A DNA stretch of 64,000 bases. It comes from an uncultured Candidatus Saccharibacteria bacterium (GTDB lineage: Bacteria > Patescibacteriota > Saccharimonadia > Saccharimonadales > 2-12-FULL-41-12). Shown here piece by piece: positions 942-59,247 of this stretch. Location: the NCBI GenBank assembly GCA_947085855.1, contig CAMTYB010000001.1:213788-277787 (forward strand), read 5' to 3'. The notes under the pieces are model-generated. The model saw only the letters and a list, made by a program, of their open reading frames with translations. It did not search any database and was not told where the DNA came from. A program made the translations under genes and the position numbers. Positions within the stretch are counted from its first letter, which is position 1. Each line of letters opens with the position of its first letter.

Positions 942-1640
942 TTGTGCATTATGCAAAATTTCATTATAGAACGATTAGCCATAAGCAGTCTGTCAGACAG
1001 TAGGCTACGAAGATCACTTTGCGCTAGTAAACCGGCTGTTTCTCATCTGTTTTACAGGGGTGACATCAGTCTACTCGCCAAAGATCGGGCACGCATTGCC
1101 ATCATTGGCACGCGCAAAATGACGCCAGCGGGCAGGGAAGCAACCTATCTACTGGCTGAAGCGGCCGCCAATAGTGGGGCAGTGGTCATCAGCGGTCTCG
1201 CGTTTGGAGTAGACACTGCCGCACACCAGGCCACATTAGACAGCGGAGGCAGGGCAGTTGCCATACTACCAGGTAGTCTTGAAGGAGTATATCCGGCACA
1301 TCACCAGCAACAAGCCATGCATATTATAAAGAGCGGGGGATTACTACTCAGTGAAGAGCCGTATCTTTTGCATCCAAAGAAATACCACTTTATCCTGCGC
1401 AATCGCATTATTGCCGCTCTGGCTGATATTATTCTGGTCATCGAAGCACCACACAAAAGTGGCAGCCTACACACAGTGGCGTATGGCACAGACATCAATA
1501 CGCCGATTGCAGCCGTACCCGGCGCTCTTAATAATCCGCAAGCCGCCGGTACCAACCTTCTTATAAGAGACGGTGCGCATGTCATTACATCGCCCGATGA
1601 CCTGCTACAACTCTTGCAGAAAGCGCCGGGCGGCACCTAA
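942..1640 (+). CDS. dprA: DNA processing protein DprA (Smf)
   Basis: DprA Rossmann-core motifs are present: IIGTRKMTPAGRE, VISGLAFGVDTAAH, RNRIIAALADIILVIEAPHKSGSLHT. The start could be TTG 942 or ATG 951. Confidence 0.85.
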   Translation: MCIMQNFIIERLAISSLSDSRLRRSLCASKPAVSHLFYRGDISLLAKDRARIAIIGTRKMTPAGREATYLLAEAAANSGAVVISGLAFGVDTAAHQATLDSGGRAVAILPGSLEGVYPAHHQQQAMHIIKSGGLLLSEEPYLLHPKKYHFILRNRIIAALADIILVIEAPHKSGSLHTVAYGTDINTPIAAVPGALNNPQAAGTNLLIRDGAHVITSPDDLLQLLQKAPGGT

Positions 1641-1724
1641 CACAGAAATGCTTGCAAAGTAAACACAAACAAAGTAGTCTATCAACTCGTACCGACAAGC
1701 GGTATACTAAAGCACAACCAATAT

Positions 1725-4031
1725 ATGTCTAATCCAAAAAACCTCGTAATCGTTGAGAGTCCAGCCAAAGCCAAGACCATCGAAAAGTATCTTGGCAAGG
1801 ATTTTAGTGTCAAAAGTAGTTTTGGCCATATTCGAGATTTGCCCAAAAAAGGACTGGCCATAGATAAAGACAACCACTTCGCACCTACCTACGAAATTGC
1901 AGCCGACAAGAAAAAGGTTGTGAGCGAACTCAAGAAAGCTGCCAAATCAGCTGATGCAGTCTGGCTTGCAAGTGACGAAGACCGTGAAGGAGAAGCTATT
2001 GCTTGGCATCTCTGTCATGCTCTTGGTCTCAAACCAGAAGAAACCAAGCGCATTGTCTTTCACGAAATCACCAAACCAGCTATCGAAGCAGCCGTCAAAA
2101 ACCCGCGCACCGTCGACATCAACCTCGTTGACGCTCAGCAAGCCCGTCGCGTTCTGGACCGCCTTGTCGGGTATGAACTATCGCCGGTTCTCTGGAAGAA
2201 AGTCCAAACTGGCCTCAGCGCAGGACGCGTCCAATCAGTCGCTGTCCGCTTAATCGTAGAGCGCGAACGCGAAATCATTGCTCACGAAGCCAAATCGCAA
2301 TTTAAAGTCTCTGGCAACTTTACAAGTAGCAACAGTGAAGCCGTGGAGCTCGTCGGCGAACTACCAAAACCACTGCCCGATGAAGCAGCCGTCCAAGACT
2401 TCTTGGGCTCACTTTCAAGCAGTAGATTTACCATCCACTCCTTAGCCAAGAAGCCGGGCACGCGCAATCCAGGCCCACCATTTACAACCAGTAGCCTACA
2501 GCAAGAAGCTTCTACTAAGCTTGGTTTCAGCGTCAAGCAAACCATGACCCTCGCGCAGCGCCTCTATGAAAATGGCCACATAACCTACATGCGTACCGAC
2601 AGCGTTAATCTGTCGCAGCAGTCGCTCAACGACGCCAAGTCTTATATAGGTAAAGAGTATGGCGACAAATATCATCAAGTGCGTACCTACAAAACAAAGA
2701 GTGCTGGCGCCCAAGAAGCCCACGAAGCGATTCGGCCAACTAACTTTTCTACTACAACGGCTGGGGCCGACGAACAGCAAAAGAAACTCTATGGTCTCAT
2801 CTGGAGACGAGCCCTAGCCAGCCAAATGGCCAGCGCCCAGATTGAGCGTAGTGAAATCGCCATCGCCATCAGTAATCGACCCGAGCAATTTGTTGCCAAA
2901 GGCGAAATTCTACAGTTTGATGGCTTTATCAAGGTCTATGGCGGTGGCAAAGATGACACCATCCTACCATCGGTCAAAGAAGGCGAAAATCTTACACTCA
3001 ACAGCGTGCGTGCACTTGAGTCATTCGACCGACCACCGGCTCGATATTCCGAAGCTTCGCTTGTAAAAAAACTCGAAGAACTCGGCATTGGCCGACCAAG
3101 CACCTACGCGCCAACTATTTCAACCATCCAAACTCGTAATTATGTAGAAAAGCGTGACGCCGACGGTGTCGAACGAAAACTGCGCGTCTTTACACTCAAG
3201 GACGGCACGATTACCCCTGACACCAAGACCGAAACTACCGGTGCTGAACGCAATCGCCTCATCCCAACCCATTTAGCCGACATGACCACCGACTTCCTAA
3301 CCAAGCACTTTGCTCCCATTGTCGACTACGACTTTACAGCTCGTGCCGAACAAGAGTTCGATAAAATCGCCGATGGTGATGCGCAGTGGCAAGCCACCAT
3401 TGAAGAATTTTATAAATCATTTCAGCCTTTAATAGAAAAGTCGGCCGATGTTAGCCGCGTCGAAGCCGCCCAGGCCCGCGTCCTTGGCAATGACCCCAAG
3501 ACCAAACAGCCAATTATGGCCCGCTACGGTCGGTTTGGACCAATGCTACAGAAGGGCGAAACCGAATCCGAAGAAAAGCCAGCTTTTGCACCGCTACCAG
3601 AAGGCGCCACCTTGACCACGGTCACGCTCGAGCAAGCCCTCGAAATGTTCAAGCTACCACGCACCGTAGGAGTTACTCAAGACGGGGTAGAAATCAAAGC
3701 TAACATTGGTCGATTTGGACCATATGTCCAGATAGACAAGCTATACGTCTCTATCAAGCCACTTGATCCACTGACCATCACCGAAGCTGAAGCTCGGGAA
3801 CTCTACGCCGAACGACTCAAAAAAGAGGCTGAAAAGTATATCCAGCAGTTCGATAACGGCATTTCTATCATTAACGGCCCATATGGACCATACATCACCA
3901 ATGGCAAAAAGAACGCCCGTATTCCAAAATCCGAAGATCCGTCCAAGCTCACCAAAGAACAAGCCACTGAGCTGCTCGAAAAGGCCCCCGACCGCAAAAA
4001 GCGGGCACCACGTCGCCGCAAATCGTCTTAG
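1725..4031 (+). CDS. topA: DNA topoisomerase I
   Basis: TOPRIM N-terminus LVIVESPAKAKTIEKYLG and active-site region ITYMRTDS. The C-terminal domain carries Cys-free GRFGPM/GRFGPY/GPYGPY repeats and a basic tail RKKRAPRRRKSS. Confidence 0.95.
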   Translation: MSNPKNLVIVESPAKAKTIEKYLGKDFSVKSSFGHIRDLPKKGLAIDKDNHFAPTYEIAADKKKVVSELKKAAKSADAVWLASDEDREGEAIAWHLCHALGLKPEETKRIVFHEITKPAIEAAVKNPRTVDINLVDAQQARRVLDRLVGYELSPVLWKKVQTGLSAGRVQSVAVRLIVEREREIIAHEAKSQFKVSGNFTSSNSEAVELVGELPKPLPDEAAVQDFLGSLSSSRFTIHSLAKKPGTRNPGPPFTTSSLQQEASTKLGFSVKQTMTLAQRLYENGHITYMRTDSVNLSQQSLNDAKSYIGKEYGDKYHQVRTYKTKSAGAQEAHEAIRPTNFSTTTAGADEQQKKLYGLIWRRALASQMASAQIERSEIAIAISNRPEQFVAKGEILQFDGFIKVYGGGKDDTILPSVKEGENLTLNSVRALESFDRPPARYSEASLVKKLEELGIGRPSTYAPTISTIQTRNYVEKRDADGVERKLRVFTLKDGTITPDTKTETTGAERNRLIPTHLADMTTDFLTKHFAPIVDYDFTARAEQEFDKIADGDAQWQATIEEFYKSFQPLIEKSADVSRVEAAQARVLGNDPKTKQPIMARYGRFGPMLQKGETESEEKPAFAPLPEGATLTTVTLEQALEMFKLPRTVGVTQDGVEIKANIGRFGPYVQIDKLYVSIKPLDPLTITEAEARELYAERLKKEAEKYIQQFDNGISIINGPYGPYITNGKKNARIPKSEDPSKLTKEQATELLEKAPDRKKRAPRRRKSS

Positions 4032-4064
4032 TCACTAGGGGTAATTATAATGCTAATGCATAAA

Positions 4065-4094
4065 TTGGTATTGTATTTTATTTCGTGGTACAAT
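4065..4094 (+). promoter_or_regulatory. Possible promoter TTGGTA-18-TGgTACAAT
   Basis: Extended -10 at 4086-4094. It would give either a ~300-nt leader or a separate small transcript. Confidence 0.35.
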
Positions 4095-4243
4095 TAGTTC
4101 ACAAATTTAGGCTAATCTGTTTTGGTATAGCAACGTAGGGGCCACATACAGCTCGCTCACAGGCGCTCATAGCAAACAAACAACAGGGGCACCGCTGTCG
4201 AGCGATAAATTTGGAGGGGTGAAACATTTACAACAACATATAC

Positions 4244-4272
4244 TTGACTCAGTATGATTTTAGTGATATAAT
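4244..4272 (+). promoter_or_regulatory. Sigma70-type promoter TTGACT-17-TATAAT
   Basis: Hexamers at 4244-4249 and 4267-4272. The ~125-nt leader contains hairpin CAGATAC/GTATCTG (4320-4346). Confidence 0.6.
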
Positions 4273-4404
4273 TATACTTAAGGTTACCGTAGATGTTGCT
4301 TTATAGCCTTCTATCTTCACAGATACCAAACACCTGTCTGTATCTGATGAAAGCACCATAACAACCCAGAGAATAGGCAAGAATAATAAGGAGCCACCAC
4401 AGCT

Positions 4405-5430
4405 ATGACGCAAGCGCATATCGAAGAACTGGTTAACAACATACTCAACACGATTGAGCGAGAGCGAGAACGTGAAATTGTGTCACGCCGTTATGGACTT
4501 TTTGATCGCAAAGAAACACTCGAACAAATAGGGGAACTCCTTGGCATCACACGCGAACGCGTTCGTCAGCTTGAAAAATCAGTTATGTCACGTTTGCGTG
4601 CCAGCGCCGAAGCAGGCGACCTACCAGGTTTAACAGATTTCCAAGAAACACTTGTAACTAAACTCGACTCAGAAGGCAAGGCTTCGCGCATTGCTACCCT
4701 CAGCAGCGAAATTACAGGCGAGAACAGCTCAAAAATTGAGCAGTCACGCCTGTCTTTTATTGCTGAGCTATGCCCGCAATTGATCGTTGTCAACGACAAT
4801 GACTTTTACTTTCAATCGACAGCACTCGCATCAGTCCACGATGAAAAGGGCATTCAAAAGACCATCGCTGCAATCATCGATGCTATCAAGCAAATCGGCG
4901 AGCCGACTCCTATCGACAAGGTAGCCGACAAGGTCAGCGACAGCGACACCAAGCACGTTGAAGCACTCGCCAGCATCTCTAAACAACTTGCTACGCTCAA
5001 CGGCAAATGGGGTCTTGTGAAGTGGCCAACCGTTAATCCAAAGAATATTCGCGACAAGATTTACGTTATTTTGCAGCAAAATGGCAAACATATGCACTTC
5101 AATGAAATCGCTGAAGCTATCAAAGACTCAGACTTTAAGCGCAAAGATGTAACTACGCAAGCTATCCACAATGAACTTATCAAAGACAAGCGCTTCGTCC
5201 TCATCGGTCGTGGCATTTACGCTCTCAAGGAGTGGGGTTACAAGAAGGGCACCGTAGCCGATATTATCACCGAAGTCCTCAAAGACGCTGGCGAGCCGCT
5301 TCATCGCGATGAAATCGTTAAGCGCGTCCTCAAGAGTCGCTACGTCAAAGAAACTACCATTCTCCTGAACCTACAGGGCAAAACCCAGTTTAACCGCGTC
5401 GCCAAAGCAACCTACGCCCTCGCCGAATAG
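4405..5430 (+). CDS. Sigma-70 region-4-like HTH protein with C-terminal HARE-HTH-like modules (no region 2)
   Basis: N-terminus REIVSRRYGL...TLEQIGELLGITRERVRQLEKSVMSRLR resembles a region-4 HTH. It is followed by delta-subunit-like modules ending GKWGLVKW, GIYALKEWGY and ATYALAE. An AAGGAG Shine-Dalgarno (SD) sequence lies 9 nt upstream. Confidence 0.6.
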   Translation: MTQAHIEELVNNILNTIEREREREIVSRRYGLFDRKETLEQIGELLGITRERVRQLEKSVMSRLRASAEAGDLPGLTDFQETLVTKLDSEGKASRIATLSSEITGENSSKIEQSRLSFIAELCPQLIVVNDNDFYFQSTALASVHDEKGIQKTIAAIIDAIKQIGEPTPIDKVADKVSDSDTKHVEALASISKQLATLNGKWGLVKWPTVNPKNIRDKIYVILQQNGKHMHFNEIAEAIKDSDFKRKDVTTQAIHNELIKDKRFVLIGRGIYALKEWGYKKGTVADIITEVLKDAGEPLHRDEIVKRVLKSRYVKETTILLNLQGKTQFNRVAKATYALAE

Positions 5431-5472
5431 GCTACACGGGTCACAGCAAAATTCTCAGGACCTATCATTACC

Positions 5473-6126
5473 ATGCACTACGTTGGACTCGAAGTTGAAG
5501 TACTCACGGGCAGCAGAGCCCTTGATGAAAATCCTTACTATGAAGTGAACGAAGGAGCTGTTCTGGCGGCCTTCAACGATATTCTTCACCGCCCAGACGC
5601 CACCAACGCCAAAGCGCTGATTGTTGGTGAACCCGCCCGGCAGCCATCACCCTGGAATAAAGAAATAGACGACACCACCGTCTATCATCTACCGATGATT
5701 CCACCCAATCCACTGCCTGCAACCGAACTGGCCAGATTCAACACAACGCTAGCTGGCTATTTAATCGACATTGCCGACAGACACACCGAAACCCAGCAAG
5801 CCGCAGAAAGCCGTTTGATGGATCCAGAGAAAGCCTGGAAGCTAAAAATGGGCGGCATCGCCTCGGCTGCCGCACTCTTATCGCAATCTGTTTACATAGA
5901 TCATGCTGCTCAAACTGGCGAGGTTTGGCCGTCAGCCTTTGGAATAGCTCTTGCTAATGGAGTTTGCCTTGGCGCCTACCACGCAGCCCGCTATGCTCAC
6001 AACAACAATCAACAAACCAGAGCAGAGATTCGTGAAAAATATCGAAATCAAGAAATTGACGCTATAAATCAGATCGGACCACTGATCATACCGAGAGCCA
6101 TGGTAACAGATAGCCAACAGGGGTAG
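5473..6126 (+). CDS. Hypothetical protein, 217 aa
   Basis: Only long ORF here. It has a C-terminal hydrophobic stretch (GGIASAAALL..., FGIALANGVCLGAY). No family recognised. Confidence 0.45.
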   Translation: MHYVGLEVEVLTGSRALDENPYYEVNEGAVLAAFNDILHRPDATNAKALIVGEPARQPSPWNKEIDDTTVYHLPMIPPNPLPATELARFNTTLAGYLIDIADRHTETQQAAESRLMDPEKAWKLKMGGIASAAALLSQSVYIDHAAQTGEVWPSAFGIALANGVCLGAYHAARYAHNNNQQTRAEIREKYRNQEIDAINQIGPLIIPRAMVTDSQQG

Positions 6127-6434
6127 CTCCATTACTTACATCTGTTAATATCTACGTAGCCGACAAATACCGAACATTTTACGAACAAAGCGTATGGGTG
6201 ATATTAAAGGGTATGCGTCACAAAGAAGCATCTGAGCCCACAGAATTGAGCAGTAGCTGGCGGCGGGGCAGAAATAATACATTCATACATTGAAAATTTA
6301 ATTAATATTTCTGAATCGGAACGCGGGGAGCAGGATCAACAATCCAATCAAAGTCTGTAATATAACGTCGCACAATATATCTTTTACGACTTACATATTG
6401 CATTTCAAAGAGGTCTACTGATACCCCTCTGCAG

Positions 6435-6462
6435 GGGAGTAATAACGAGTTTTATGCATAAA
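6435..6462. other. dif-like 11-6-11 element GGGAGTAATAA-CGAGTT-TTATGCATAAA
   Basis: The inner ATAA-N6-TTATG core matches the Xer dif architecture as I recall it (E. coli GGTGCGCATAA-TGTATA-TTATGTTAAAT). The outer arms match poorly. Confidence 0.25.
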
Positions 6463-6585
6463 CGGCACGTACATAAATTGCTGAGCCCCGCACAAGCTGC
6501 ATATGGCTTTACTTGGTTACCATACTCAAATTAGCCACTTCTCGGTACTAAAGCGCCGTATATACGCTTTCACGCTGCTGCTGAG

Positions 6586-6636
6586 TTTTCCACAATTTTA
6601 GTGAGATTTTCCATACCGCTTATGACTTTATCCACA
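6586..6636 (+). other. Three DnaA-box-like 9-mers in direct orientation, phased at 21 bp
   Basis: TTTTCCACA (6586), TTTTCCATA (6607) and TTATCCACA (6628), against the consensus TTATCCACA. Confidence 0.4.
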
Positions 6637-6657
6637 GCCATATTTGCAATTTTACTT

Positions 6658-6710
6658 ATTTTCACGCGAAGTATATTTTTTGCGACGTCCCCTCTCCTGC
6701 CCGTGAAAAT
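6658..6710. repeat. Inverted repeat ATTTTCACG / CGTGAAAAT with 35-nt spacer
   Basis: 9/9 complementary arms at 6658-6666 and 6702-6710. An AT-rich tract follows at 6711-6775. Confidence 0.45.
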
Positions 6711-6850
6711 TATTAAATTTTGACTTTTCGGTATTTTTATTTTTTATATATGTTTTTTTATTAATCCTATAAAACACACATGTGCGAACAAAAAACGAAC
6801 AACAAGGGGAGAACGGTCGGGGGATCTCTCGGTTATAGCTACCTCGCTAG

Positions 6851-7804
6851 CTATTTGACGTAGGCTCGTTCTGGTACTCGCACGTCAATATACTCGGCTG
6901 GCTTTGGACCTTTCTGCTCTGCATAGTCGCGGGCTGCAATAAATGTGCCGAAGCTTTTGCGAGCATCTTCGTAGATACTAAACTTAGCATAATAGACAAC
7001 ACCGTCAAAGCGGGTGAACAGCTCCCCTCCCCCTGCGCGCAGTTCACTGACCTGGATGCTGAGTTTGGCGGCGGCAGCTTGGTGCTGAATTTCATTAATA
7101 AAGGCCACCTGCGTACTGGTGAGAGCCTGCTTGCCAACATCAATGCGAGCTTGTGACTCATCAACCACACGAGGTAGATCATCTCGCTTGGGGCTATCCT
7201 GCAACTGACTAAGGTTAACAAGAGCTTTACCAGTGCTATTCAGAAGAAAATCACCTTGGGACGTAGCCAAAACCAAGCTTGGTCGATTCAGCGTAGCGGT
7301 AACCGTTGCTCGGTTAGTAAATAGAGGTGTCGTGACACGCACACTGCTTAGCTCCGGAAATTTATTCTGTAGCTCTGCGGTGATTTTTTGACGGTCGAGC
7401 GTTAGCTTACTATAGCCCAAGAAGCCTTGTTGATTACTGAGTTCGGCGACGGCTTTTTCATATTCGGCAACTGGTCGTACAGCAGCATCTCCACCGGCAA
7501 TAACTACCTTTGGTGCGGCCGATAAGTGAGCCATTACAATAGCTAAAAGTACCCCACCGAGCACCCAAGCAGATAGGATACCTTTCTGGAGCCAGGTACG
7601 ACTAAACTGACGAGCTGTTGGACCTAAGCCAGCTGCCTCAGTATTACGACTTTGTTGCGGCCGTACGTCTGGTGATCTATTAGAACTATACTGAAACGCA
7701 TTCTGCTTTTGACGCATAATCTGTGGCGACCGACCGACCGGTGCTTTCGGTCGTCGCATTACCGTGCGAGCAAGTTGCTTTGTTAAGCGGCTCAGTCGAC
7801 TCAT
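6851..7804 (-). CDS. ftsQ: Cell division protein FtsQ/DivIB-like (POTRA)
   Basis: Basic cytoplasmic N-terminus, a single TM (GILSAWVLGGVLLAIVMAHL), then a POTRA-like segment. It occupies the last position of the dcw cluster, after murG, with a 4-nt overlap. Confidence 0.65.
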   Translation of the reverse strand: MSRLSRLTKQLARTVMRRPKAPVGRSPQIMRQKQNAFQYSSNRSPDVRPQQSRNTEAAGLGPTARQFSRTWLQKGILSAWVLGGVLLAIVMAHLSAAPKVVIAGGDAAVRPVAEYEKAVAELSNQQGFLGYSKLTLDRQKITAELQNKFPELSSVRVTTPLFTNRATVTATLNRPSLVLATSQGDFLLNSTGKALVNLSQLQDSPKRDDLPRVVDESQARIDVGKQALTSTQVAFINEIQHQAAAAKLSIQVSELRAGGGELFTRFDGVVYYAKFSIYEDARKSFGTFIAARDYAEQKGPKPAEYIDVRVPERAYVK

Positions 7805-8958
7805 GGGCGAGCAATCTCCAACAGAAGTTCTGCCAAATCTGCTGCTGGCTGCCGCTTCCCTTGCAGGGCATACATGTGCTCAGCCAACCGACGTCGCAGG
7901 GCTTTATCTGCTAATAGTGTGTCGACAGCTCGTAATAATGTAGCCGGGCTAGCTTCCAGTTCGTCTTCGGAGACTACAATCGCAGCGCCGGCATCGTGAT
8001 AAACGGTCGCATTCTTAAGCTGATGCCCTCCTGTTAGGTATGGGTTAGGCACAATGATGCAGGCTTTCTTTTGCATAGCGAAATCAGCCAACGCCGAAGC
8101 TCCAGCGCGCGCAATAACCACATCAGCGACGGCACTCATATGGAATAACTCACTTGAGAATGCGAAGAAATGAGTTCGCTTTTTTAGCGCTACGGGCAAA
8201 TTTTCTAACTGATCATCGTTACCCTCGCCAATTTGATGGAAGACACGTAAATTCGGGTGAAGCTCCAGTAATTCCGGAAGTACGCCTATAACCGCTTCAT
8301 TGAGCCGTCTGGCGCCGTTACTACCACCAGTAATCAACAGGACCGGATCAGACTTAGATAGCCTTAGATCGGCTCGTATGCGCTCCTGCTCCTCACTAGA
8401 GTAATGGCGGAACCGTGCATCAGTTGGCACCCCAACCACTCGAATCGTTTTCTTGGGGTAGTTATAGTATTCGGCTGGCATAGCCGTTGCATGGTAGCGC
8501 GCCCAACGCGCAGCCAACCTATTTGATAATCCGGGCAACGCATCTGAGTCATGAGTAATATACGGAACATGATGCAGCCGACCGGCTGCTGCCACCGGCA
8601 CACAGACAAAACCACCCTTCAGTAGCATGGCAGTGGGTTTGAGGCGCCCGAGTAATCGGTAAGCCTGGAAAAGACCGCGCAATAGTCGGAAAAAATCACG
8701 AATATTTAAGATATTTGTCTTAACATCAAAGAGCTTAGTCAGGAGGGATTCACCATGGTACCGCCGTAATTTACCGGCCGAGATAAAATGCAGTTCATCA
8801 AAGAGCTGACTGTCTTTGGCTATGTAGGCAAATTTGCCACCGGTTTCGCCGATGTAGACGAGTCTAGCCTTGGGGTGCTTTTTGCGCAGTTCAGACGCGA
8901 CGGCTAGAAGCGGCGTAATATGGCCGCCCGACCCGCCGCCGCAGAGGACGATTGTCAT
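7801..8958 (-). CDS. murG: Undecaprenyl-PP-MurNAc-pentapeptide GlcNAc transferase MurG
   Basis: N-terminus MTIVLCGGGSGGHITPLLAV. GT28 C-terminal motifs ITGGSNGARRLN and ARAGASALADF. Confidence 0.9.
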   Translation of the reverse strand: MTIVLCGGGSGGHITPLLAVASELRKKHPKARLVYIGETGGKFAYIAKDSQLFDELHFISAGKLRRYHGESLLTKLFDVKTNILNIRDFFRLLRGLFQAYRLLGRLKPTAMLLKGGFVCVPVAAAGRLHHVPYITHDSDALPGLSNRLAARWARYHATAMPAEYYNYPKKTIRVVGVPTDARFRHYSSEEQERIRADLRLSKSDPVLLITGGSNGARRLNEAVIGVLPELLELHPNLRVFHQIGEGNDDQLENLPVALKKRTHFFAFSSELFHMSAVADVVIARAGASALADFAMQKKACIIVPNPYLTGGHQLKNATVYHDAGAAIVVSEDELEASPATLLRAVDTLLADKALRRRLAEHMYALQGKRQPAADLAELLLEIARP

Positions 8959-15410: not shown

Positions 15411-15647
15411 GCATTTTCTAGATTTATGTCATACAAAATGCCCACGGTTATCCACAGGCAGTAACCAGGAGTCATTTTTGACCACATGTAAGGCGTCTTT
15501 ATCTCATACATGAAATAAAGACGCCGATTCTTACTGCTATCACGACCAGAAATTTGCTGCACAGATAAACCTTCGCTACTGTTAAGTGGTCACTCTTTAG
15601 TGAATTCTTAACAACTTCTTAAATTCGATAAAGGATATACGCACCAT

Positions 15648-28721: not shown

Positions 28722-29459
28722 TTAAGCAACTCGTACTGTGCGAGTTGCTTTTTCTGTGCCTGCCAGACGATGTTCGCGATGCGCACGTACCAGTGATTTT
28801 CGCAAGAAACCAGGTGCCACTGACCACGTACCCACCTCATCAAGCGGTGAGGAGTTTTTTGGGCGCTCACTTGGCCAGCCTGTTGCCGACACCAAGGAGA
28901 GTAGTCCATTTTTATGCTGCAGACTCTGGACCCTAATATCACCGTCTCCCCGATCAGCCCAAATTTTGAAGTGGTGACCTTCGAATTTCAGATCAGGTAC
29001 AAGCTGGCTTTTGCCACCAAGAATTAAGCTAGCACCAGGATATAAACAGCCTACGAGTTGCGTCTCTTTCATGTACGGATCTTCGTTTATTTTAGTCACA
29101 AATGCCTGCCCATTGGCATGCAAACCACTCCCGTATGCCTTAGACAAACCAAAACCCTGGGTACCAGCATAGATAATTCCGTATAAGATCTGTCGCATAC
29201 CGTACTGCGGCATTTCACGCGCAGCCAAGGCAGCATCGGGCGAATTCGGTATGAGTTTCACGTATGGCGCCAATACCGACTGGGCCACGTAAGGCAGTTC
29301 AGTAATTTCATTAAGCAACAACGAACGCCGTTCGACTTCATCTGGCGCCGGAAAACCACTAACAGCGCCTGGCTGTAATTCTAACCGACTATTTGGCTTC
29401 ACCTGTGACCCTCGCCCGTTTATCTTTTTTTGAGGTTCACTTTCACAATAGCTCACCAA
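28722..29459 (-). CDS. Hypothetical protein, 245 aa (start uncertain, TTG/GTG)
   Basis: Only long ORF in the interval. There is no ATG near the 5' end. The last ~11 codons overlap the rpmA terminator hairpin. No family recognised. Confidence 0.4.
   Translation of the reverse strand: MVSYCESEPQKKINGRGSQVKPNSRLELQPGAVSGFPAPDEVERRSLLLNEITELPYVAQSVLAPYVKLIPNSPDAALAAREMPQYGMRQILYGIIYAGTQGFGLSKAYGSGLHANGQAFVTKINEDPYMKETQLVGCLYPGASLILGGKSQLVPDLKFEGHHFKIWADRGDGDIRVQSLQHKNGLLSLVSATGWPSERPKNSSPLDEVGTWSVAPGFLRKSLVRAHREHRLAGTEKATRTVRVA
28724..28755 (+). terminator. Intrinsic terminator after rpmA
   Basis: AAGCAACTCG, loop tactgtg, CGAGTTGCTT, followed by TTTTT. Confidence 0.75.
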
Positions 29460-29508
29460 CTGTGGTCAAGCAATAGAGTTATACAATTTTACAATGCTAT
29501 AGTTCGGT

Positions 29509-29901
29509 TTAGCTCAAGTGGGCTTTAACCCGATCGACAACGTCGGCAATGACAACCTGTGATTTCACCAGATAATCATCGGCACCGAGTGACTGGGCTC
29601 GTTCTTTGTCACTATCTTGGCTGAGGGCAGTCAACATAATGATTTTAACTTTGGCAGTTTCAGGCGTGTTGCGCAGAATATCTAGCACATCAAAACCACT
29701 TACTTTTGGCATCATGACATCAAGCAAAATGAGGTCAGGTTTAGCCTGCAAAGCCGCTTGCAGTGCATCTCCCCCGTTGCTAACTCGGGTAGTCTTAAAG
29801 CCTTCAGCTTGCAAGCGCGTTTGGTAGACATTTGCCAAATTATCGTCGTCTTCGACGAGTAGAATTACTTTATTTGAAAAATCAATATTTGTATTATCCA
29901 T
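29509..29901 (-). CDS. Single-domain response regulator (CheY-like), canonical
   Basis: Motifs LLVEDDD, KPDLILLDVMMPKVSG, IIMLTA and DYLVKS. All phospho-chemistry residues are present. Confidence 0.8.
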   Translation of the reverse strand: MDNTNIDFSNKVILLVEDDDNLANVYQTRLQAEGFKTTRVSNGGDALQAALQAKPDLILLDVMMPKVSGFDVLDILRNTPETAKVKIIMLTALSQDSDKERAQSLGADDYLVKSQVVIADVVDRVKAHLS

Positions 29902-29975
29902 TAGCGCTTATGTTAACACGAAACGACTGATAATGCAAGTGCTCATAGCTCTCGCTTTTTTCCCGATGGGGAGGC

Positions 29976-31526
29976 TCAGACAACCTTGCGGATTTCGGGC
30001 GAGGCGATGTAGAGCGTTGCGGCGTCGGCCTTGATGAGTCCCTGGATGCGCGCGCTGCTCGACGCCGTGGTGCTCGCCTTCGTCGGGGTCCGCATCACGC
30101 CCTGCGGGATCGCAGACAGGAACGACGACGTGTTGGAAACCCAGAACGTCGCGGCGTAGTTAGTGCCGCCAGGCTCGATGTACTGAAGACGCAACTCCTT
30201 CACGTCCGTCCAGGTGCCCTCACCCTTGTACTCGCAACGGGCGTAGCCATGCTCACCAATGGCGAACTGGCTGGCCCGACCGAACCGGAACCAGCGAAGC
30301 TCGCAGTCCGCGCCACTACTAATGACGATCTTCCACCAGTAACCCGGCTTGCCGTCCGCGCGCGCCTCCAATGACGAGACTACAGTTCCGGTGCCGGACA
30401 CGATGTCGAGTGTATAGCCGATCGGGATGTCGCCGCTGATCGAGCCGGGGTCGCTGTTCGTGCCTCCTGCCGTCGAATGGAAGGGGCTGTACTCCACGAT
30501 GTTCTGCAAGTCCGCGCGACTGTGAAGTAGCTCGTTGACGCTGCTGACACGCGGCTCAAGCAGCGTTGCAATGATCGTCCCGATGGCGCGCGCGCCGCTC
30601 TTCGAAGGATGCAGGCTGTCGTACGTCATGCCGGTGCGTGGGGCGCCGTCGTAGTCCGCAAGGCTGCCGAAGGCGTCTACGAGCAGCATCCCATCCGTAG
30701 CCGCGACGTACTCCCTGATCCACTGATTAACGCCGTACAGAACGGCCTTCTGGCCGGTGGTCAGAGTGATGTCGGAGCGAGGCAGAATCGTGAATGCGAG
30801 GACGACCATTCCGACGGCGAGCGCCTGCTCGTACATGTATTCCAGGTCGCCGGTGATGTCCGCGATGGTGCGGTCGTCCGCCAGGTCGTTCGTCCCGCCG
30901 AAGATGCATCCGTAAGCCGCGCCTGACGCGAGGAACGGCGTGAGGCGGGCGCGAATCTCCTGCGTGTTCTCGCTTACCACGCCATCGATGTACGTCACGT
31001 CGAGACGGTCATAGAGCAGGTAGTTTGCCCACGTGAGGTAGCCGTCGTCGGGCTGCGTGTTACCGACCGCGTTACCGGACGGTTCGCAGGCCGCGGTGAT
31101 CGAGTCACCAATCGCGGCAACGGTGTTACGAGGGGCGGCAGCACCGAGCACCTGAGTAGTGCTTGCCACCACAAGCGGAGTTCCAGTATGTGCGTCTATA
31201 GCTTTTCCTGCATCGTTTGAGTCTGTGGATTTGGTAACTACTGTTGTGGGTATTTGCGCAGGAGTCAGGGTAGTACCTGTGAGACTGGCTACACCGTCGC
31301 TAACACCTTTTTGGGACGCAGGGATGGCATTGTCAGCAGCATCCAGACTAGTCTGGATTGCACCAGAGGTTTTAGCTCGAGTGACTGCATTGTCTTGTAG
31401 CTGGTTGGCGCCAACTACGTTGTCTTTAAGAGTACCAGTGTTAGTGTGAGATTGACTGAGGAAGTCGTTGAGGATGTCCCCCCAGGATCCTTGGTCACTG
31501 CCTGGAGTTGGGAGCCTGCTCGCCAT
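29976..31526 (-). CDS. SGNH/GDSL-family hydrolase with N-terminal fibre-like segment and C-terminal beta-rich domain
   Basis: SGNH blocks GDSIT (I), GGTND (III) and DSLHPS (V). N-terminal motif LPTPGSDQGSWGDILNDFL. GAGGAG SD upstream. The 3' ~1.2 kb is ~67% GC against ~46% in the flanks. Confidence 0.8.
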   Translation of the reverse strand: MASRLPTPGSDQGSWGDILNDFLSQSHTNTGTLKDNVVGANQLQDNAVTRAKTSGAIQTSLDAADNAIPASQKGVSDGVASLTGTTLTPAQIPTTVVTKSTDSNDAGKAIDAHTGTPLVVASTTQVLGAAAPRNTVAAIGDSITAACEPSGNAVGNTQPDDGYLTWANYLLYDRLDVTYIDGVVSENTQEIRARLTPFLASGAAYGCIFGGTNDLADDRTIADITGDLEYMYEQALAVGMVVLAFTILPRSDITLTTGQKAVLYGVNQWIREYVAATDGMLLVDAFGSLADYDGAPRTGMTYDSLHPSKSGARAIGTIIATLLEPRVSSVNELLHSRADLQNIVEYSPFHSTAGGTNSDPGSISGDIPIGYTLDIVSGTGTVVSSLEARADGKPGYWWKIVISSGADCELRWFRFGRASQFAIGEHGYARCEYKGEGTWTDVKELRLQYIEPGGTNYAATFWVSNTSSFLSAIPQGVMRTPTKASTTASSSARIQGLIKADAATLYIASPEIRKVV

Positions 31527-31620
31527 ACCCTACACGCTCCTCGCATTAGTACGTAAAAGCTCAATACCAGAGTGAAGATATACTCTTCGGGTTTTTATTT
31601 TATCCCTCATACTGGTTAAG

Positions 31621-31649
31621 ATTATGTGGTAGCGGTTATCTGGTGTCAA
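31621..31649 (-). promoter_or_regulatory. Sigma70-type promoter TTGACA-17-CATAAT upstream of the SGNH hydrolase gene
   Basis: Reverse-strand hexamers at 31649-31644 and 31626-31621. Confidence 0.55.
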
Positions 31650-31707
31650 GATTAAACTACGGAAGACAAAGCTGAATTGTAACCACAACGATTCCGCTAT
31701 GGACGCC

Positions 31708-33315
31708 TCAGACGAGGGTTTTGATGAAGCCGTCAAACATTGGATGCGGGCGGTTTGGACGTGACTTGAATTCTGGATGAAATTGACTGGCCAAGAAGAA
31801 TGGATGGTCAGTTCCCTCAATCACCTCTACGAGATTGTTGTCCGGATTGATGCCAGTTGGCTTGATGCCCCAACTCTCGTACTGATCTCGATAAGAGTTA
31901 TTACACTCGTAGCGGTGGCGGTGGCGTTCGACGATTTCTGGCTCACCATAAACCTTTGCAGCAAGGCTGCCGGCTTCTAGACTACAGTTGTAATTGCCAA
32001 GGCGCATGGTACCACCAGTGTTCTCTTTACCCTTCTGGCCTTCCATAGTGTGGATGACTTGATTCTTACCCTTGGCATCAAGTTCAGTAGTTGTCGCGTC
32101 AGTTACGCCGTTATTGCGAGCTGCTGCTATGACGGCCATCTGCAAACCAAGGCACAAACCAAGATACGGTAGTTTCTCTTTCAGAGCATATTGAGCGGCA
32201 GTGATTTTGCCTTCAAGGCCGCGGGTGCCAAAGCCGCCAGGCACCACTATACCGTCGCAACCCTTTAGTACCGTAGCAATATCTGCATTCGGTGCTTCAA
32301 TTTCCTCAGCTTCAATCCATTTAATGGTCAGGTTGGTATTGTTCCAAAAAGCCGCGCTACGTAGGGCTTCAAATACAGACATGTACGTATCGGTGTTATC
32401 CATGTACTTAGCGACCACACCGACGGTAACCTCTTTATCAAAAGAAGTAGTCGCCTTCTTAACCACTTCGCGCCAATCACTCAGATCAGGCTTGGTGCTG
32501 CGTTCGCTCACGCCGAGCCTGTCGGCGATAACAGTGCCGAGGCCAGAGTCTTCGAGGGTCAGCGGGACTTCGTAGATACTTTTAGCATTTGGTAGCAAGG
32601 CGATTGCTCTTGAATCCACGCCACTAAACAAGCTGAGCTTCTGGATAACACTTTCGGACGCTTGCTGCTCGCTGCGTGCCACCAAAACATCAGGAACGAT
32701 ACCGAAGCCGCGCAGCTCGCGCACTGCATTCTGAGCCGGCTTAGTCTTCACTTCCTGGCTCGCACCAAGGAATGGCAAATAGACCACATGTACAAACATG
32801 CAGTGCTCACGACCGGTGTTAAAAGCAAATTCGCGAATCGCCTCGATAAAGCTGAGACCTTCATAATCGCCGACGGTACCACCGACTTCGATAATATGAA
32901 CGTCAAAACCTTCACCGGCGCGCTTAATTTCTTCCTGCATGGCCTGCGTAACATGCGGAATGTACTGCACGGTTTTGCCGAGATATTTACCGGCTCGCTC
33001 ATCAGCTAGCACCTTAGCCAAGACGCGACCGCTCATCAATGAGCTCGCCTGCGTCAGTTCTTCATCCAAAAAGCGCTCATAATGCCCGAGGTCTAGGTCG
33101 GTCTCGGCACCGTCTCTCGTCACAAAGCACTCGCCATGCTCAGCCGGATTAAGCGTACCGGCATCAGTATTGAGGTACGGGTCACATTTTTGGAGGTTAA
33201 CAGTTAGTCCGCGGGCTTTTAGCAGACGACCAATTGAGGCGGCCGTGATACCCTTGCCAACTCCTGACAAGACACCGCCGGTAACAAAAATATACTTAGT
33301 CTGCTGTTTTCCCAC
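31708..33315 (-). CDS. pyrG: CTP synthase
   Basis: TKYIFVTGGVLSGVGKG and the glutaminase triad region GLCLGLQ...HRHRYE. GTG 33315 is preferred, with AGAGGGAG SD 8 nt upstream. The ORF track extends to 33324. Confidence 0.95.
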   Translation of the reverse strand: MGKQQTKYIFVTGGVLSGVGKGITAASIGRLLKARGLTVNLQKCDPYLNTDAGTLNPAEHGECFVTRDGAETDLDLGHYERFLDEELTQASSLMSGRVLAKVLADERAGKYLGKTVQYIPHVTQAMQEEIKRAGEGFDVHIIEVGGTVGDYEGLSFIEAIREFAFNTGREHCMFVHVVYLPFLGASQEVKTKPAQNAVRELRGFGIVPDVLVARSEQQASESVIQKLSLFSGVDSRAIALLPNAKSIYEVPLTLEDSGLGTVIADRLGVSERSTKPDLSDWREVVKKATTSFDKEVTVGVVAKYMDNTDTYMSVFEALRSAAFWNNTNLTIKWIEAEEIEAPNADIATVLKGCDGIVVPGGFGTRGLEGKITAAQYALKEKLPYLGLCLGLQMAVIAAARNNGVTDATTTELDAKGKNQVIHTMEGQKGKENTGGTMRLGNYNCSLEAGSLAAKVYGEPEIVERHRHRYECNNSYRDQYESWGIKPTGINPDNNLVEVIEGTDHPFFLASQFHPEFKSRPNRPHPMFDGFIKTLV

Positions 33316-48949: not shown

Positions 48950-49861
48950 TTACTGGAGCGCGGTCAAGATAATCAATACAACCAAGAATTTGACGAGTAA
49001 GTCGGCTCGCAAATAGGCTTCTTCGATACCAGTATAGTCGCGGCCAGCAGCACCGGCTTTCAGGACGTTCGCAGCTGCAATCGCCATCACTACATAACCT
49101 AATACGATCACACCGATGACAGCATAGACGTGCCAACCAAAGCGTTCCATACCCCAGATGCTCGTACCAGCCAATGAGCCAAGAATTGGAGCAAACGCAG
49201 TCAAACCAGCCACCCAAGCAAAAATGTAGGCCAACCAGCGTGGCTGACGAGCCTTAGCATTATCGCGCTCCGCAACCCAACTTAGAACCGCAGCCAAGAG
49301 CATAGCCGCTGCCGAAAGTTTTAGTGTCGAAATATCATTAACACCGACGAGTAGATTCAAGAATACTACTGTTAGCGCAGCTGACAAACCAAAAGACATC
49401 CAACGGAAACCCGAGATACGGCCGGCCAAAGTTGTCTCGTAACGTGCTCGTAATTTAGTTGCCAAAAAGAGTGACAATACTGCACTCACTAATAGCGAAG
49501 CTACCAGCACATACTTGGGATCAATATTGTACAAAACTTCGTGTGCTGTACCCAAAACCACCTTGTCCTGCCCCGCAAATTCATCACGAGCTGAAATCGT
49601 CAGCGTAATCGCGCTCTGCGCCATAGACACAAAGCCTATAACTACACCTGCAAATAAGGTGTACACAACCGCGCTGCTTAAATGCAGGCTACGGATTCGC
49701 TCTAACGGTGTAAGTGGAGCTTTGCGACTTGATGATGTAGTAGTCTTAACAGCAGTCGTTTTGGCTGGTTTGGTAACTTTTGTAGTTTTAGTTTTCTTGG
49801 TAACCTTTGCCGCCTTAGAAGCTGACGCCGGCTTTTTTGATTTAGAAGTTGTTGTTGCCAT
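48950..49861 (-). CDS. Heliorhodopsin-like 7TM protein with Lys/Thr-rich N-terminal tail
   Basis: Seven hydrophobic segments. The stretches GFRWMSFGLSAAL...GVNDIS...LSWVAER and YTGIEEAYLRADLLVKFLVV align without gaps to my recollection of heliorhodopsin 48C12 (FRWVEYSLSSS...GIADIV...FGWLQEK; YLRGERAYIVLSLVAKSAL), including the Schiff-base Lys. ATG 49861 is preferred over GTG 49879. Confidence 0.6.
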   Translation of the reverse strand: MATTTSKSKKPASASKAAKVTKKTKTTKVTKPAKTTAVKTTTSSSRKAPLTPLERIRSLHLSSAVVYTLFAGVVIGFVSMAQSAITLTISARDEFAGQDKVVLGTAHEVLYNIDPKYVLVASLLVSAVLSLFLATKLRARYETTLAGRISGFRWMSFGLSAALTVVFLNLLVGVNDISTLKLSAAAMLLAAVLSWVAERDNAKARQPRWLAYIFAWVAGLTAFAPILGSLAGTSIWGMERFGWHVYAVIGVIVLGYVVMAIAAANVLKAGAAGRDYTGIEEAYLRADLLVKFLVVLIILTALQ

Positions 49862-49867
49862 GGCGCT

Positions 49868-49876
49868 ATGATAGCA
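49868..49876 (-). promoter_or_regulatory. Extended -10 TGCTATCAT, 6 nt before the heliorhodopsin-like ATG
   Basis: Reverse strand: gtgTGCTATCATagcgccATG. Confidence 0.4.
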
Positions 49877-49905
49877 CACTCTGTTGGCTTTGGGGTGAGT
49901 TTTAC

Positions 49906-58980: not shown

Positions 58981-59247
58981 TTAGCATGGATAGTGCAAGT
59001 TTTCACGGATGCGCTGGAGTGCTTTGTGGATAAATCCTAAGCCACTACCTCTCGCTTGGTCTCGACGTTGCGCCTGGGCTTCCTCGGTCAACATAACGAC
59101 GGTAGCAATGTGTCCTTCACCCACTTCTAGCTGGCCGGCAACTACAACTTCATCTTCGCCCCATCCCATTACGTCCATGGTGCGACGATCTTTATCTGTA
59201 AGCTCCGGTTGCGGCGCTGTCTCGCCTGAAAATTTATCCTCACTCAT
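58981..59247 (-). CDS. Hypothetical small acidic protein (~88 aa)
   Basis: ORF with its own TAGACA-17-TATAAT promoter. ATG 59247 lies 8 nt after the -10. No family recognised. Confidence 0.4.
   Translation of the reverse strand: MSEDKFSGETAPQPELTDKDRRTMDVMGWGEDEVVVAGQLEVGEGHIATVVMLTEEAQAQRRDQARGSGLGFIHKALQRIRENLHYPC

Follow-up and report, generated by a model that had tools for sequence, protein, structure and literature searches.

A probable dif-type recombination site in a conserved non-coding island of a saccharibacterial chromosome

What could account for a long non-coding island in a genome that is otherwise densely packed with genes? The question is raised by a 64,000-nucleotide (64-kb) stretch of contig CAMTYB010000001.1 from an uncultured Candidatus Saccharibacteria bacterium (henceforth referred to as the ‘window’), in which open reading frames (ORFs) of at least 60 amino acids (aa) cover 94% of the DNA. 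The island occupies positions 6127-6850, where a plus-strand gene block (942-6126) and a minus-strand block (from 6851) converge, and its 714 bp from 6133 to 6846 are the longest part of the window free of any ORF of at least 60 aa, the runner-up being 392 bp. An initial annotation had pointed to this ORF-free stretch and strand switch, both of which we confirm, and had proposed an origin-like module, with an unannotated RNA gene or a decayed gene as further options and with the caveat that convergence fits a terminus. It is the caveat that held: the island contains a 28-bp site of the dif type, which the initial annotation did not list. We consider it likely, from comparison of sequences, that the island is the chromosomal dif locus of this saccharibacterium, lying in the part of the chromosome in which its two halves, as told from the orientation of genes, come together. 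Among the observations that lead to this reading are the conservation of the 28-bp core, its resemblance to dif, a Xer-family neighbour in one lineage and the integration of prophages exactly there. The two features needed at the outset are as follows (related loci and contigs are cited by L numbers).

Positions 6127-6850: ORF-free, non-coding island between the converging genes 5473-6126 (plus strand) and 6851-7804 (minus strand, FtsQ-like).
Positions 6365-6392: dif-type core of 28 bp, ACGTCGCACAA-TATATC-TTTTACGACTT, with an 11-bp arm, a 6-bp centre and an 11-bp arm; an imperfect palindrome.

The core is the best-conserved element of the island. Its exact 24-mer lies at 6367-6390, and two further palindromic bases on each side extend it to the 11-6-11 site; on the minus strand, 6367-6390 forms the strongest aligned block, GTCGYAAAA-KATAYA-TTGTGCGAC, outside which conservation drops off within 2 nt. 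The core occurs once only in the window, even when 3 mismatches are allowed. Eight relatives of the locus were found through their proteins and not through the motif (L001-L003 through MurG, L126 and L128 through TopA, L168 and L169 through the FtsQ-like protein, and L127, a second contig with the same TopA as L126), and all eight contain the core, share the gene order and have an ORF-free gap of 600-830 bp, which is maintained even where the relatives’ MurG is only 42% identical. An exact-pattern scan of metagenome contigs returned at least 120 stretches with one match each; among the matches listed, the core-bearing contigs include some of 830, 637, 483 and 473 kb, and any second sites on core-bearing stretches are hybrid or half sites only. 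The flanks of the core sort into several unrelated synteny groups, which indicates that it is common to diverse lineages of the Candidate Phyla Radiation (CPR).

The dif sites of E. coli and B. subtilis are the substrates of XerC/XerD and are exploited by integrative mobile elements exploiting Xer (IMEX), such as CTXphi and VGJphi of Vibrio cholerae. Measured against reference dif sequences, the relatives’ version of the core is identical to E. coli dif at 19 of the 28 positions, including CGCA-AA and the entire TGTATA centre, and the window core is identical to B. subtilis dif at 18 of the 28 (P ~5e-5 and ~2e-4, respectively, as the best of four comparisons). The likeness to canonical dif thus extends to the length of 28 bp, the 11-6-11 imperfect palindrome, the CGCA-AA arm and the TGTATA or TATATA centre, and further to the intergenic position at a convergence of gene orientation and to integrase-less filamentous prophages lying between a full and a hybrid site. 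It differs in three respects: in E. coli dif the XerC arm and the XerD arm are less alike than the two core arms are (GTCGYAAAA and GTCGCACAA), the switch in composition skew lies away from the site, and the core of Saccharimonadia sits in a conserved non-coding island of ~600-700 bp. We know of no counterpart among model dif loci for a dif inside a conserved 600-700 bp island with a DnaA-type box.

In another CPR lineage, ~10 loci have a gene for a full-length Xer-family recombinase whose start lies 240-600 bp from the core, its product scoring 242 bits as XerD, 241 bits as XerC and 219 bits as XerA (cutoff 220). Single-recombinase Xer systems, in which the site lies beside the recombinase gene, comprise XerS/difSL of streptococci, XerH/difH of Helicobacter and XerA/dif of archaea. 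The core resembles these in its fair symmetry and in the nearby Xer-family gene of that one lineage; it differs in that no recombinase gene stands beside it in Saccharimonadia or in the window and, from the 31-bp difSL, in its length of 28 bp. The genome would encode elsewhere one or two tyrosine recombinases of the Xer family, which would bind the two arms and exchange strands across the 6-bp centre, thereby resolving chromosome dimers at division. A different type of neighbour was observed in many Saccharibacteria, with 17 loci in which a membrane-anchored P-loop ATPase of 720-940 aa (TrwB_AAD_bind, DUF87/HerA and TraG-D_C matches) directly adjoins the core, as in L094 (+407 to +3224 from the palindrome), L091, L106 and L052; it is not at this place in the window. 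This TrwB/TraG/HerA-like ATPase gave no FtsK_SpoIIIE match and could be a DNA translocase tied to the site.

The evidence that we regard as decisive for a dif-type core comes from mobile elements that lack an integrase. The same 24-mer was found in 39 contigs of IMG/VR, seven of which are long and share one arrangement: MurG, the FtsQ-like gene, the full site, an element of 5.1-5.9 kb and then a hybrid site, which retains the centre and one arm and has foreign DNA in place of the other arm.

Inovirus-like prophage loci at the core, in Saccharibacteria-type genomes: L160 (2062-7517), L148, L151, L162, L163, L167 and L140.

The prophage genes encode a Zot-like assembly ATPase (PF05707, phrog_197), a rolling-circle Rep (PF23343, phrog_3419) and small membrane or coat-like proteins, and no integrase was found in the 5.1-5.9 kb elements. 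In the one clean pair of an empty and an occupied site (L032 and L140, respectively), the two contigs are identical over 300/300 nt on the left side, and on the right side the identity (300/300) resumes only past the hybrid site, which lies 5.5 kb downstream. A full and a hybrid site around an integrase-less filamentous prophage is the signature of host-Xer integration at dif, as known from IMEX. Since these inovirus-like elements have no integrase of their own, the reaction must be the work of a host enzyme, on a site of the host that is maintained in its own right. A conserved dif-like site, single on each contig and set amid a conserved array of DNA motifs, is thereby shown to be a substrate for site-specific integration by elements that lack an integrase. 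Past the hybrid site, a second element-like start with a homologous 78-aa gene is often present, which suggests tandem arrays. A search (blastn) of positions 5400-7900 of the window against the phage collection gave no match.

A similar insertion, of 2.2 kb, lies at the core of L089. All that its distal junction repeats is one arm with the centre, ~18 nt of flank and, at the same ~215-nt distance, the GTTC tandem repeat described below, and the 170 nt between flank and repeat are unrelated. This single example suggests that the GTTC repeat may be needed in cis for recombination.

The same insertions bring up a rival explanation, in which the palindrome is an attachment hot spot for mobile elements, or the site of another recombinase or DNA-binding protein, and does not serve dimer resolution. 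It would be in keeping with the inserted prophages and the 2.2-kb element, with the sharing of the 24-mer by tailed-phage contigs, with a skew switch that lies elsewhere and with the extra half-sites near the core, which are unusual for dif. However, the inserted inovirus-like elements come without an integrase, the core is conserved across the superphylum also where no element sits, its anatomy and sequence are dif-like, and in one lineage it adjoins a Xer-family gene; we therefore hold this rival to be unlikely. As to the tailed phages, the 24-mer was observed in IMG/VR contigs with terminase and portal genes (L129, L133, L138, L141, L153, L157, L159, L161 and L164), where it is flanked on both sides by AACAGGGGT and ACCCCTGTT motifs akin to the CCCCTG block at the host site. 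These 24-mers may be the attP sites of temperate CPR phages.

Are the surroundings of the core those of a chromosome terminus? Gene orientation says that they are. In ~120 pooled loci, 298 of the 370 genes within 12 kb on one side point at the core (298 plus vs 72 minus), as do 312 of the 413 on the other (312 minus vs 101 plus). The dcw (division and cell wall) side of the window consists of at least 57 kb of mostly minus-strand genes, and on the topA side, seen in L126 and L170, 20 plus-strand genes face 3-4 minus-strand genes across 24 kb. The pooled mean GC skew also switches at the palindrome, and this switch was tried as proof of a terminus and rejected as an artefact of gene orientation, being gone after strand correction and restriction to four-fold degenerate sites.

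Several observations weigh against a dif locus at the terminus. At four-fold degenerate sites, the plus-strand genes of 942-6126 have a coding-strand GC skew of -0.508 ± 0.042, which cannot be told from the -0.548 of the head-on plus-strand genes scattered in the minus block and is well removed from the -0.119 ± 0.017 of the co-directional minus-strand genes; the four genes of 942-6126 point at the core and yet carry lagging-strand composition. The same asymmetry is present in L126 and L128 and in pooled Saccharimonadia, and the CPR family with the adjacent Xer gene is strongly skewed, with the same sign to either side of the core. The skew switch is offset by more than 6 kb from the switch in gene orientation, also in related genomes, and cumulative skew in the window passes through the island monotonically. 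The composition of L170 genes drifts toward the leading-strand value at a distance of 14-24 kb from the core. In our reading, forks arriving from the dcw side would normally pass dif and encounter the other fork perhaps 10-15 kb beyond. Apart from composition, the single-copy count applies per contig, up to 830 kb; Pfam annotation of the proteins of the 64-kb window revealed no Xer or FtsK gene; canonical dif needs no accessory region of 600 bp; and the suggestion of an accessory role for the rest of the island draws mainly on L089.

The remainder of the island carries the features to which the initial annotation had drawn attention, beginning with three DnaA-type boxes.

Positions 6586-6594, plus strand: DnaA-type box TTTTCCACA, with 1 mismatch to TTATCCACA; kept in L168 and L169.
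Positions 6607-6615, plus strand: weak DnaA-type box TTTTCCATA, with 2 mismatches; kept in L168, degenerate in L169 and absent in remoter relatives.
Positions 6628-6636, plus strand: perfect DnaA box TTATCCACA, matching by its spacing the single box of most relatives.

The three boxes start exactly 21 bp apart on the same strand, as had been read from the sequence, and the view that they are meaningful was upheld. An equally spaced same-strand triple (defined as at most 3 mismatches in total to TTATCCACA at an equal spacing of 10-33 bp) was obtained in 0 of 20,000 dinucleotide-preserving shuffles of the island and occurs once only in the window. Single boxes are not enriched window-wide (17 found vs 13.4 expected); two more perfect TTATCCACA 9-mers lie isolated at 15448-15456 (plus strand) and 59025-59033 (minus strand), a number as predicted by chance. 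The three-box register is held by the closest relatives, L168 and L169, whose FtsQ-like proteins are 86% and 53% identical to that of the window, respectively, and L037 has two boxes 42 bp apart. Most Saccharimonadia have one TGTGGAWAA box on the minus strand, often extended to CTGTGGAWAAGTCAAAT, which is constant in orientation and lies 163 ± 5 bp from the GTTCG repeat on the FtsQ side and ~150-340 bp from the core; the window box at 6628-6636 is the one at that spacing, being 164 bp from this repeat. The DnaA-box consensus is TTWTNCACA, and TGTGGAWAA varies only at the one base that is degenerate in it. Within 600 bp of the core, boxes show an ~11-fold enrichment. The Xer-adjacent CPR family, which is unrelated, has the box 178-250 bp from the core on its other side, followed by CGTGAAAATTATAGG iteron-like repeats, so that one position-conserved box is found in two CPR lineages. 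The loci of the M23 group, in which the palindrome lies in a short intergenic gap, have no box, which indicates that the core is autonomous and the box module an add-on.

Do the boxes mark a replication origin? As an oriC or a second origin, the island would bind DnaA at the phased boxes and open at the A/T tract. The non-random triple with an 86% A+T tract 75 bp away is in line with this, as are the conservation in two CPR lineages of a box that is variable only at the degenerate position of the consensus, and the iteron-like repeats beside the box in the Xer-adjacent family. The island shares with oriC and with datA and DARS1/2 of E. coli the DnaA-consensus boxes, their phasing by whole helical turns, the A/T-rich neighbour and the conserved non-coding setting. 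However, the genes around it converge for at least 24 and 57 kb rather than diverge; there is no skew minimum or inflection at the island, four-fold GC skew being equal on both sides; and no DnaA-trio, i.e. (C/T)TA triplets in register after TTATCCACA, was found in the window or in the relatives’ consensus. The initial annotation had reported no dnaA or dnaN nearby, and this was borne out by Pfam annotation of the window and by the lack of any G.GKTHL-type DnaA ORF in 126 sequences totalling 941 kb. Most relatives moreover have a single box, and the adjacent element is a dif site, which is a mark of the terminus. We therefore reject an origin here as very unlikely. The skew of the same sign on both sides would in principle fit a unidirectional replicon that starts and ends at the island, which would explain the uniform skew; the 24 kb of wrong-facing genes on the topA side and the drift of the far genes of L170 to leading-strand composition leave this version, likewise, only a slight chance.

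A further possibility is that the box module is a DnaA-control locus in its own right, titrating or recharging DnaA in the manner of datA or DARS, and is merely next to dif. The conserved, consensus-matching box and the three-box array retained in the closest relatives favour this, as does the character of the region, non-coding and of a kind that binds proteins, with A-tracts and with IHF-like AAGTCAAAT motifs (one mismatch). The ~200-bp distance between box and core recurs in the second lineage with the core in opposite orientation, which suggests two separable units. Against this, most lineages have one box, where datA and DARS need at least three in a set arrangement; many CPR lineages (the M23 group) have the palindrome without a box; and the repeated occurrence of box and core together speaks for a common function and not for chance adjacency. 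An independent control locus is thus rather improbable.

The core and boxes are accompanied by other conserved motifs (henceforth referred to, together with the boxes, as the ‘module’), of which the inverted repeat and the A/T-rich tract had been recorded in the initial annotation and were found as described.

Positions 6420-6443, minus strand: conserved block ACTCCCCTGCAGAGGGGTATC, ~45 bp from the core, seen as ACTCCCCTG..AGGTAT in alignments of 18 and of 32 loci.
Positions 6658-6710: inverted repeat, ATTTTCACG (6658-6666) and CGTGAAAAT (6702-6710), exact reverse complements.
Positions 6711-6775: A/T-rich tract, 86% A+T vs 52% in the window, holding the conserved TTGACTTTT (6720-6728) and a TATA-type block.
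Positions 6786-6800, minus strand: border repeat GTTCGTTTTTTGTTC, tandem GTTC half-sites 11 bp apart, invariant in alignments.
Positions 6172-6186, minus strand: second border repeat GTTCGTAAAATGTTC, in the same orientation, ~200 bp away on the other side of the core.

The two border repeats, which had not been listed before, are direct repeats of the form GTTCGT-N4-TGTTC (GAACA-N4-ACGAAC on the plus strand) and bracket the island; the one at 6786-6800 is preceded on the minus strand by a conserved TTCTCCCCTT. Apart from one copy inside secA, exact copies in the window and in the related loci lie nowhere but at the island borders, and a general regulon motif was rejected on this account. The inverted repeat encloses a half-site resembling a core arm, ATATTTTTTGCGAC (6673-6686), and a C-rich block (6688-6701). 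GTGAAAA/TTTTCAC motifs are conserved beside the box both in Saccharimonadia and in the Xer-adjacent CPR family, the motif AAAAGTCAAA is conserved in the A/T tract of the module, and CCCCTG-type motifs like that at 6420-6443 flank the same 24-mer in the tailed-phage contigs too. Extra half-sites of the core arm lie within 600 bp of the core in ~13 loci. Separately, L012 has, 105 bp to the left of the palindrome, both arms a second time, inverted, around a centre of 11 bp rather than 6 bp (GTCGTAAAA-GATATCGCGGA-TTGTGCGAC), and L067 and L048 have an inverted half-site ~30 bp from the palindrome.

A conserved motif array beside a Xer-type core has a precedent on plasmids: at cer of ColE1 and psi of pSC101, ~180 bp of flanking DNA bind PepA, ArgR or ArcA. 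Like these, the island joins a Xer-type core to conserved flanking DNA, putatively protein-binding, at fixed spacing; its tandem repeat with an 11-bp period is of the kind bound by winged-helix regulators, and the mobile element in L089 copies a core half and the repeat at the same distance. Unlike cer and psi, the island is chromosomal, its conserved flanks lie on both sides of the core and are much longer, and the motifs differ and include a DnaA-type box. We predict that the remainder of the island is a set of protein-binding motifs, specific to the lineage and fixed in spacing, comprising one to three DnaA-type boxes, the GTGAAAA inverted repeats, the A/T tract, CCCCT/AGGGG blocks and the border repeats, in which the boxes may bind DnaA and the 11-bp-period repeats a winged-helix protein. 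The module might then be accessory or architectural DNA for recombination, as in cer and psi, or a control or barrier site specific to the terminus; we infer such an accessory or terminus-control role with much less confidence than the dif-type core itself. A bolder version would have the box, A/T and repeat module, welded to dif, act as a working DnaA-dependent element at the CPR chromosome terminus. DnaA would be titrated or recharged once the last DNA has been copied, coupling completion and dimer resolution to the next initiation, or the module would arrest forks in a polar fashion or serve as a back-up start; the GTTCG repeats would bind a dedicated winged-helix protein, and the mismatch between skew and gene orientation would belong to the same biology. 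We put this forward as a speculative and rather improbable extension.

The conservation of the island could alternatively be that of a transcript or a protein. An unannotated structured RNA would suit a long, conserved, ORF-free stretch with possible hairpins (CCCCT..AGGGG at 6424-6438 and the palindrome). Yet no Rfam family was matched (gathering threshold, or E = 10) beyond two matches at chance level, and no tRNA or tmRNA was found; the folding energy is no better than that of shuffles (z = +0.18 and +0.61 for the two strands); RNAalifold gave 0.0 kcal/mol on either strand of the box region and elsewhere only the invariant palindrome; and a scan of the island for promoters and terminators found nothing exceeding shuffles and no sigma-70-type promoter inside. 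The alignments of the island have short invariant blocks at fixed spacing, and its middle varies in length and sequence. An RNA gene is accordingly most improbable. A decayed gene or a hidden small protein gene would agree with the gene-like size of the island and with its ORFs of 40-45 aa, but tblastx against 17 homologous islands gave similar scores in all six frames and only where nucleotides are conserved, which places the conservation at the nucleotide level, and the gap is ORF-free in relatives with a MurG only 42% identical. We give this option next to no credence, and a dif locus with its motif array accounts best, in our view, for the island.

The relatives of the window’s MurG mark the chromosome as one of Saccharimonadia (TM7, CPR). 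The placement of the island between the topA block and the FtsQ-like gene that ends the dcw cluster is a feature of Saccharimonadia as a whole.

Positions 4405-5430, plus strand: gene for a 341-aa sigma-r4/HARE-HTH protein, conserved, preceding the next.
Positions 5473-6126, plus strand: gene for a hypothetical protein of 217 aa, flanking the island; the gene at this place varies among relatives.
Positions 6851-7804, minus strand: gene for an FtsQ/DivIB-like membrane protein of 317 aa, terminal in the reduced dcw cluster.

By Pfam annotation, the plus-strand block contains dprA, topA and the two genes listed above, and the minus-strand block begins with the FtsQ-like gene, murG, ftsW, mraY, ftsI and mraW, a reduced dcw cluster. 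The FtsQ-like gene adjoins the core in 41 loci. Its product gave no Pfam or NCBIfam match; one transmembrane helix is visible in the translation, and some homologues are labelled FtsQ by JGI. A weak tblastn match (E = 2.2) raised the possibility of a hidden recombinase, which was dropped on inspection of the protein’s sequence. The 341-aa protein combines an N-terminal helix-turn-helix of the sigma-70 region 4 type with a HARE-HTH domain like that of the RNA polymerase delta subunit, and in at least 24 loci its gene has been conserved beside the island; the protein is a candidate for binding to the island motifs.

The CPR, or Patescibacteria, make up a large share of bacterial diversity, and how their chromosomes are completed and segregated is almost unknown. 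Our literature searches found no description of dif, oriC or unidirectional replication in CPR or Saccharibacteria, and the core thus adds a new member to the dif family, from a superphylum for which these searches gave none. A consensus of 24-28 bp that holds across the superphylum offers a marker of the terminus region for CPR genomes and metagenome-assembled genomes, with uses in assembly checks and in estimates of replication rate from coverage. It also provides a ready-made integration site, driven by a host enzyme, for the few genetically tractable Saccharibacteria. A module with a DnaA-type box next to dif, without counterpart in model bacteria, and the disagreement between orientation and skew at the island both pose concrete questions on replication control in minimal cells. 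Prophages are known in oral TM7 (Shaiber et al. 2020, PMC7739484), and the passages of that paper on inovirus, prophage and integration do not mention dif; the site described here explains where and how filamentous prophages of CPR integrate without an integrase.

The remainder of the window consists of housekeeping genes, ~85% of them on the minus strand, and two minor observations concern this part. Around 29000-32000 lies a patch that is richer in G+C than the window (0.55-0.57 vs 0.48), with a locally positive GC skew over 30001-33000; it spans a GDSL-lipase-like gene (29976-31526) and the start of the CTP synthase gene and may be acquired DNA. At 48950-49879, on the minus strand, there is a gene of the heliorhodopsin family (PF18761, 73.5 bits).

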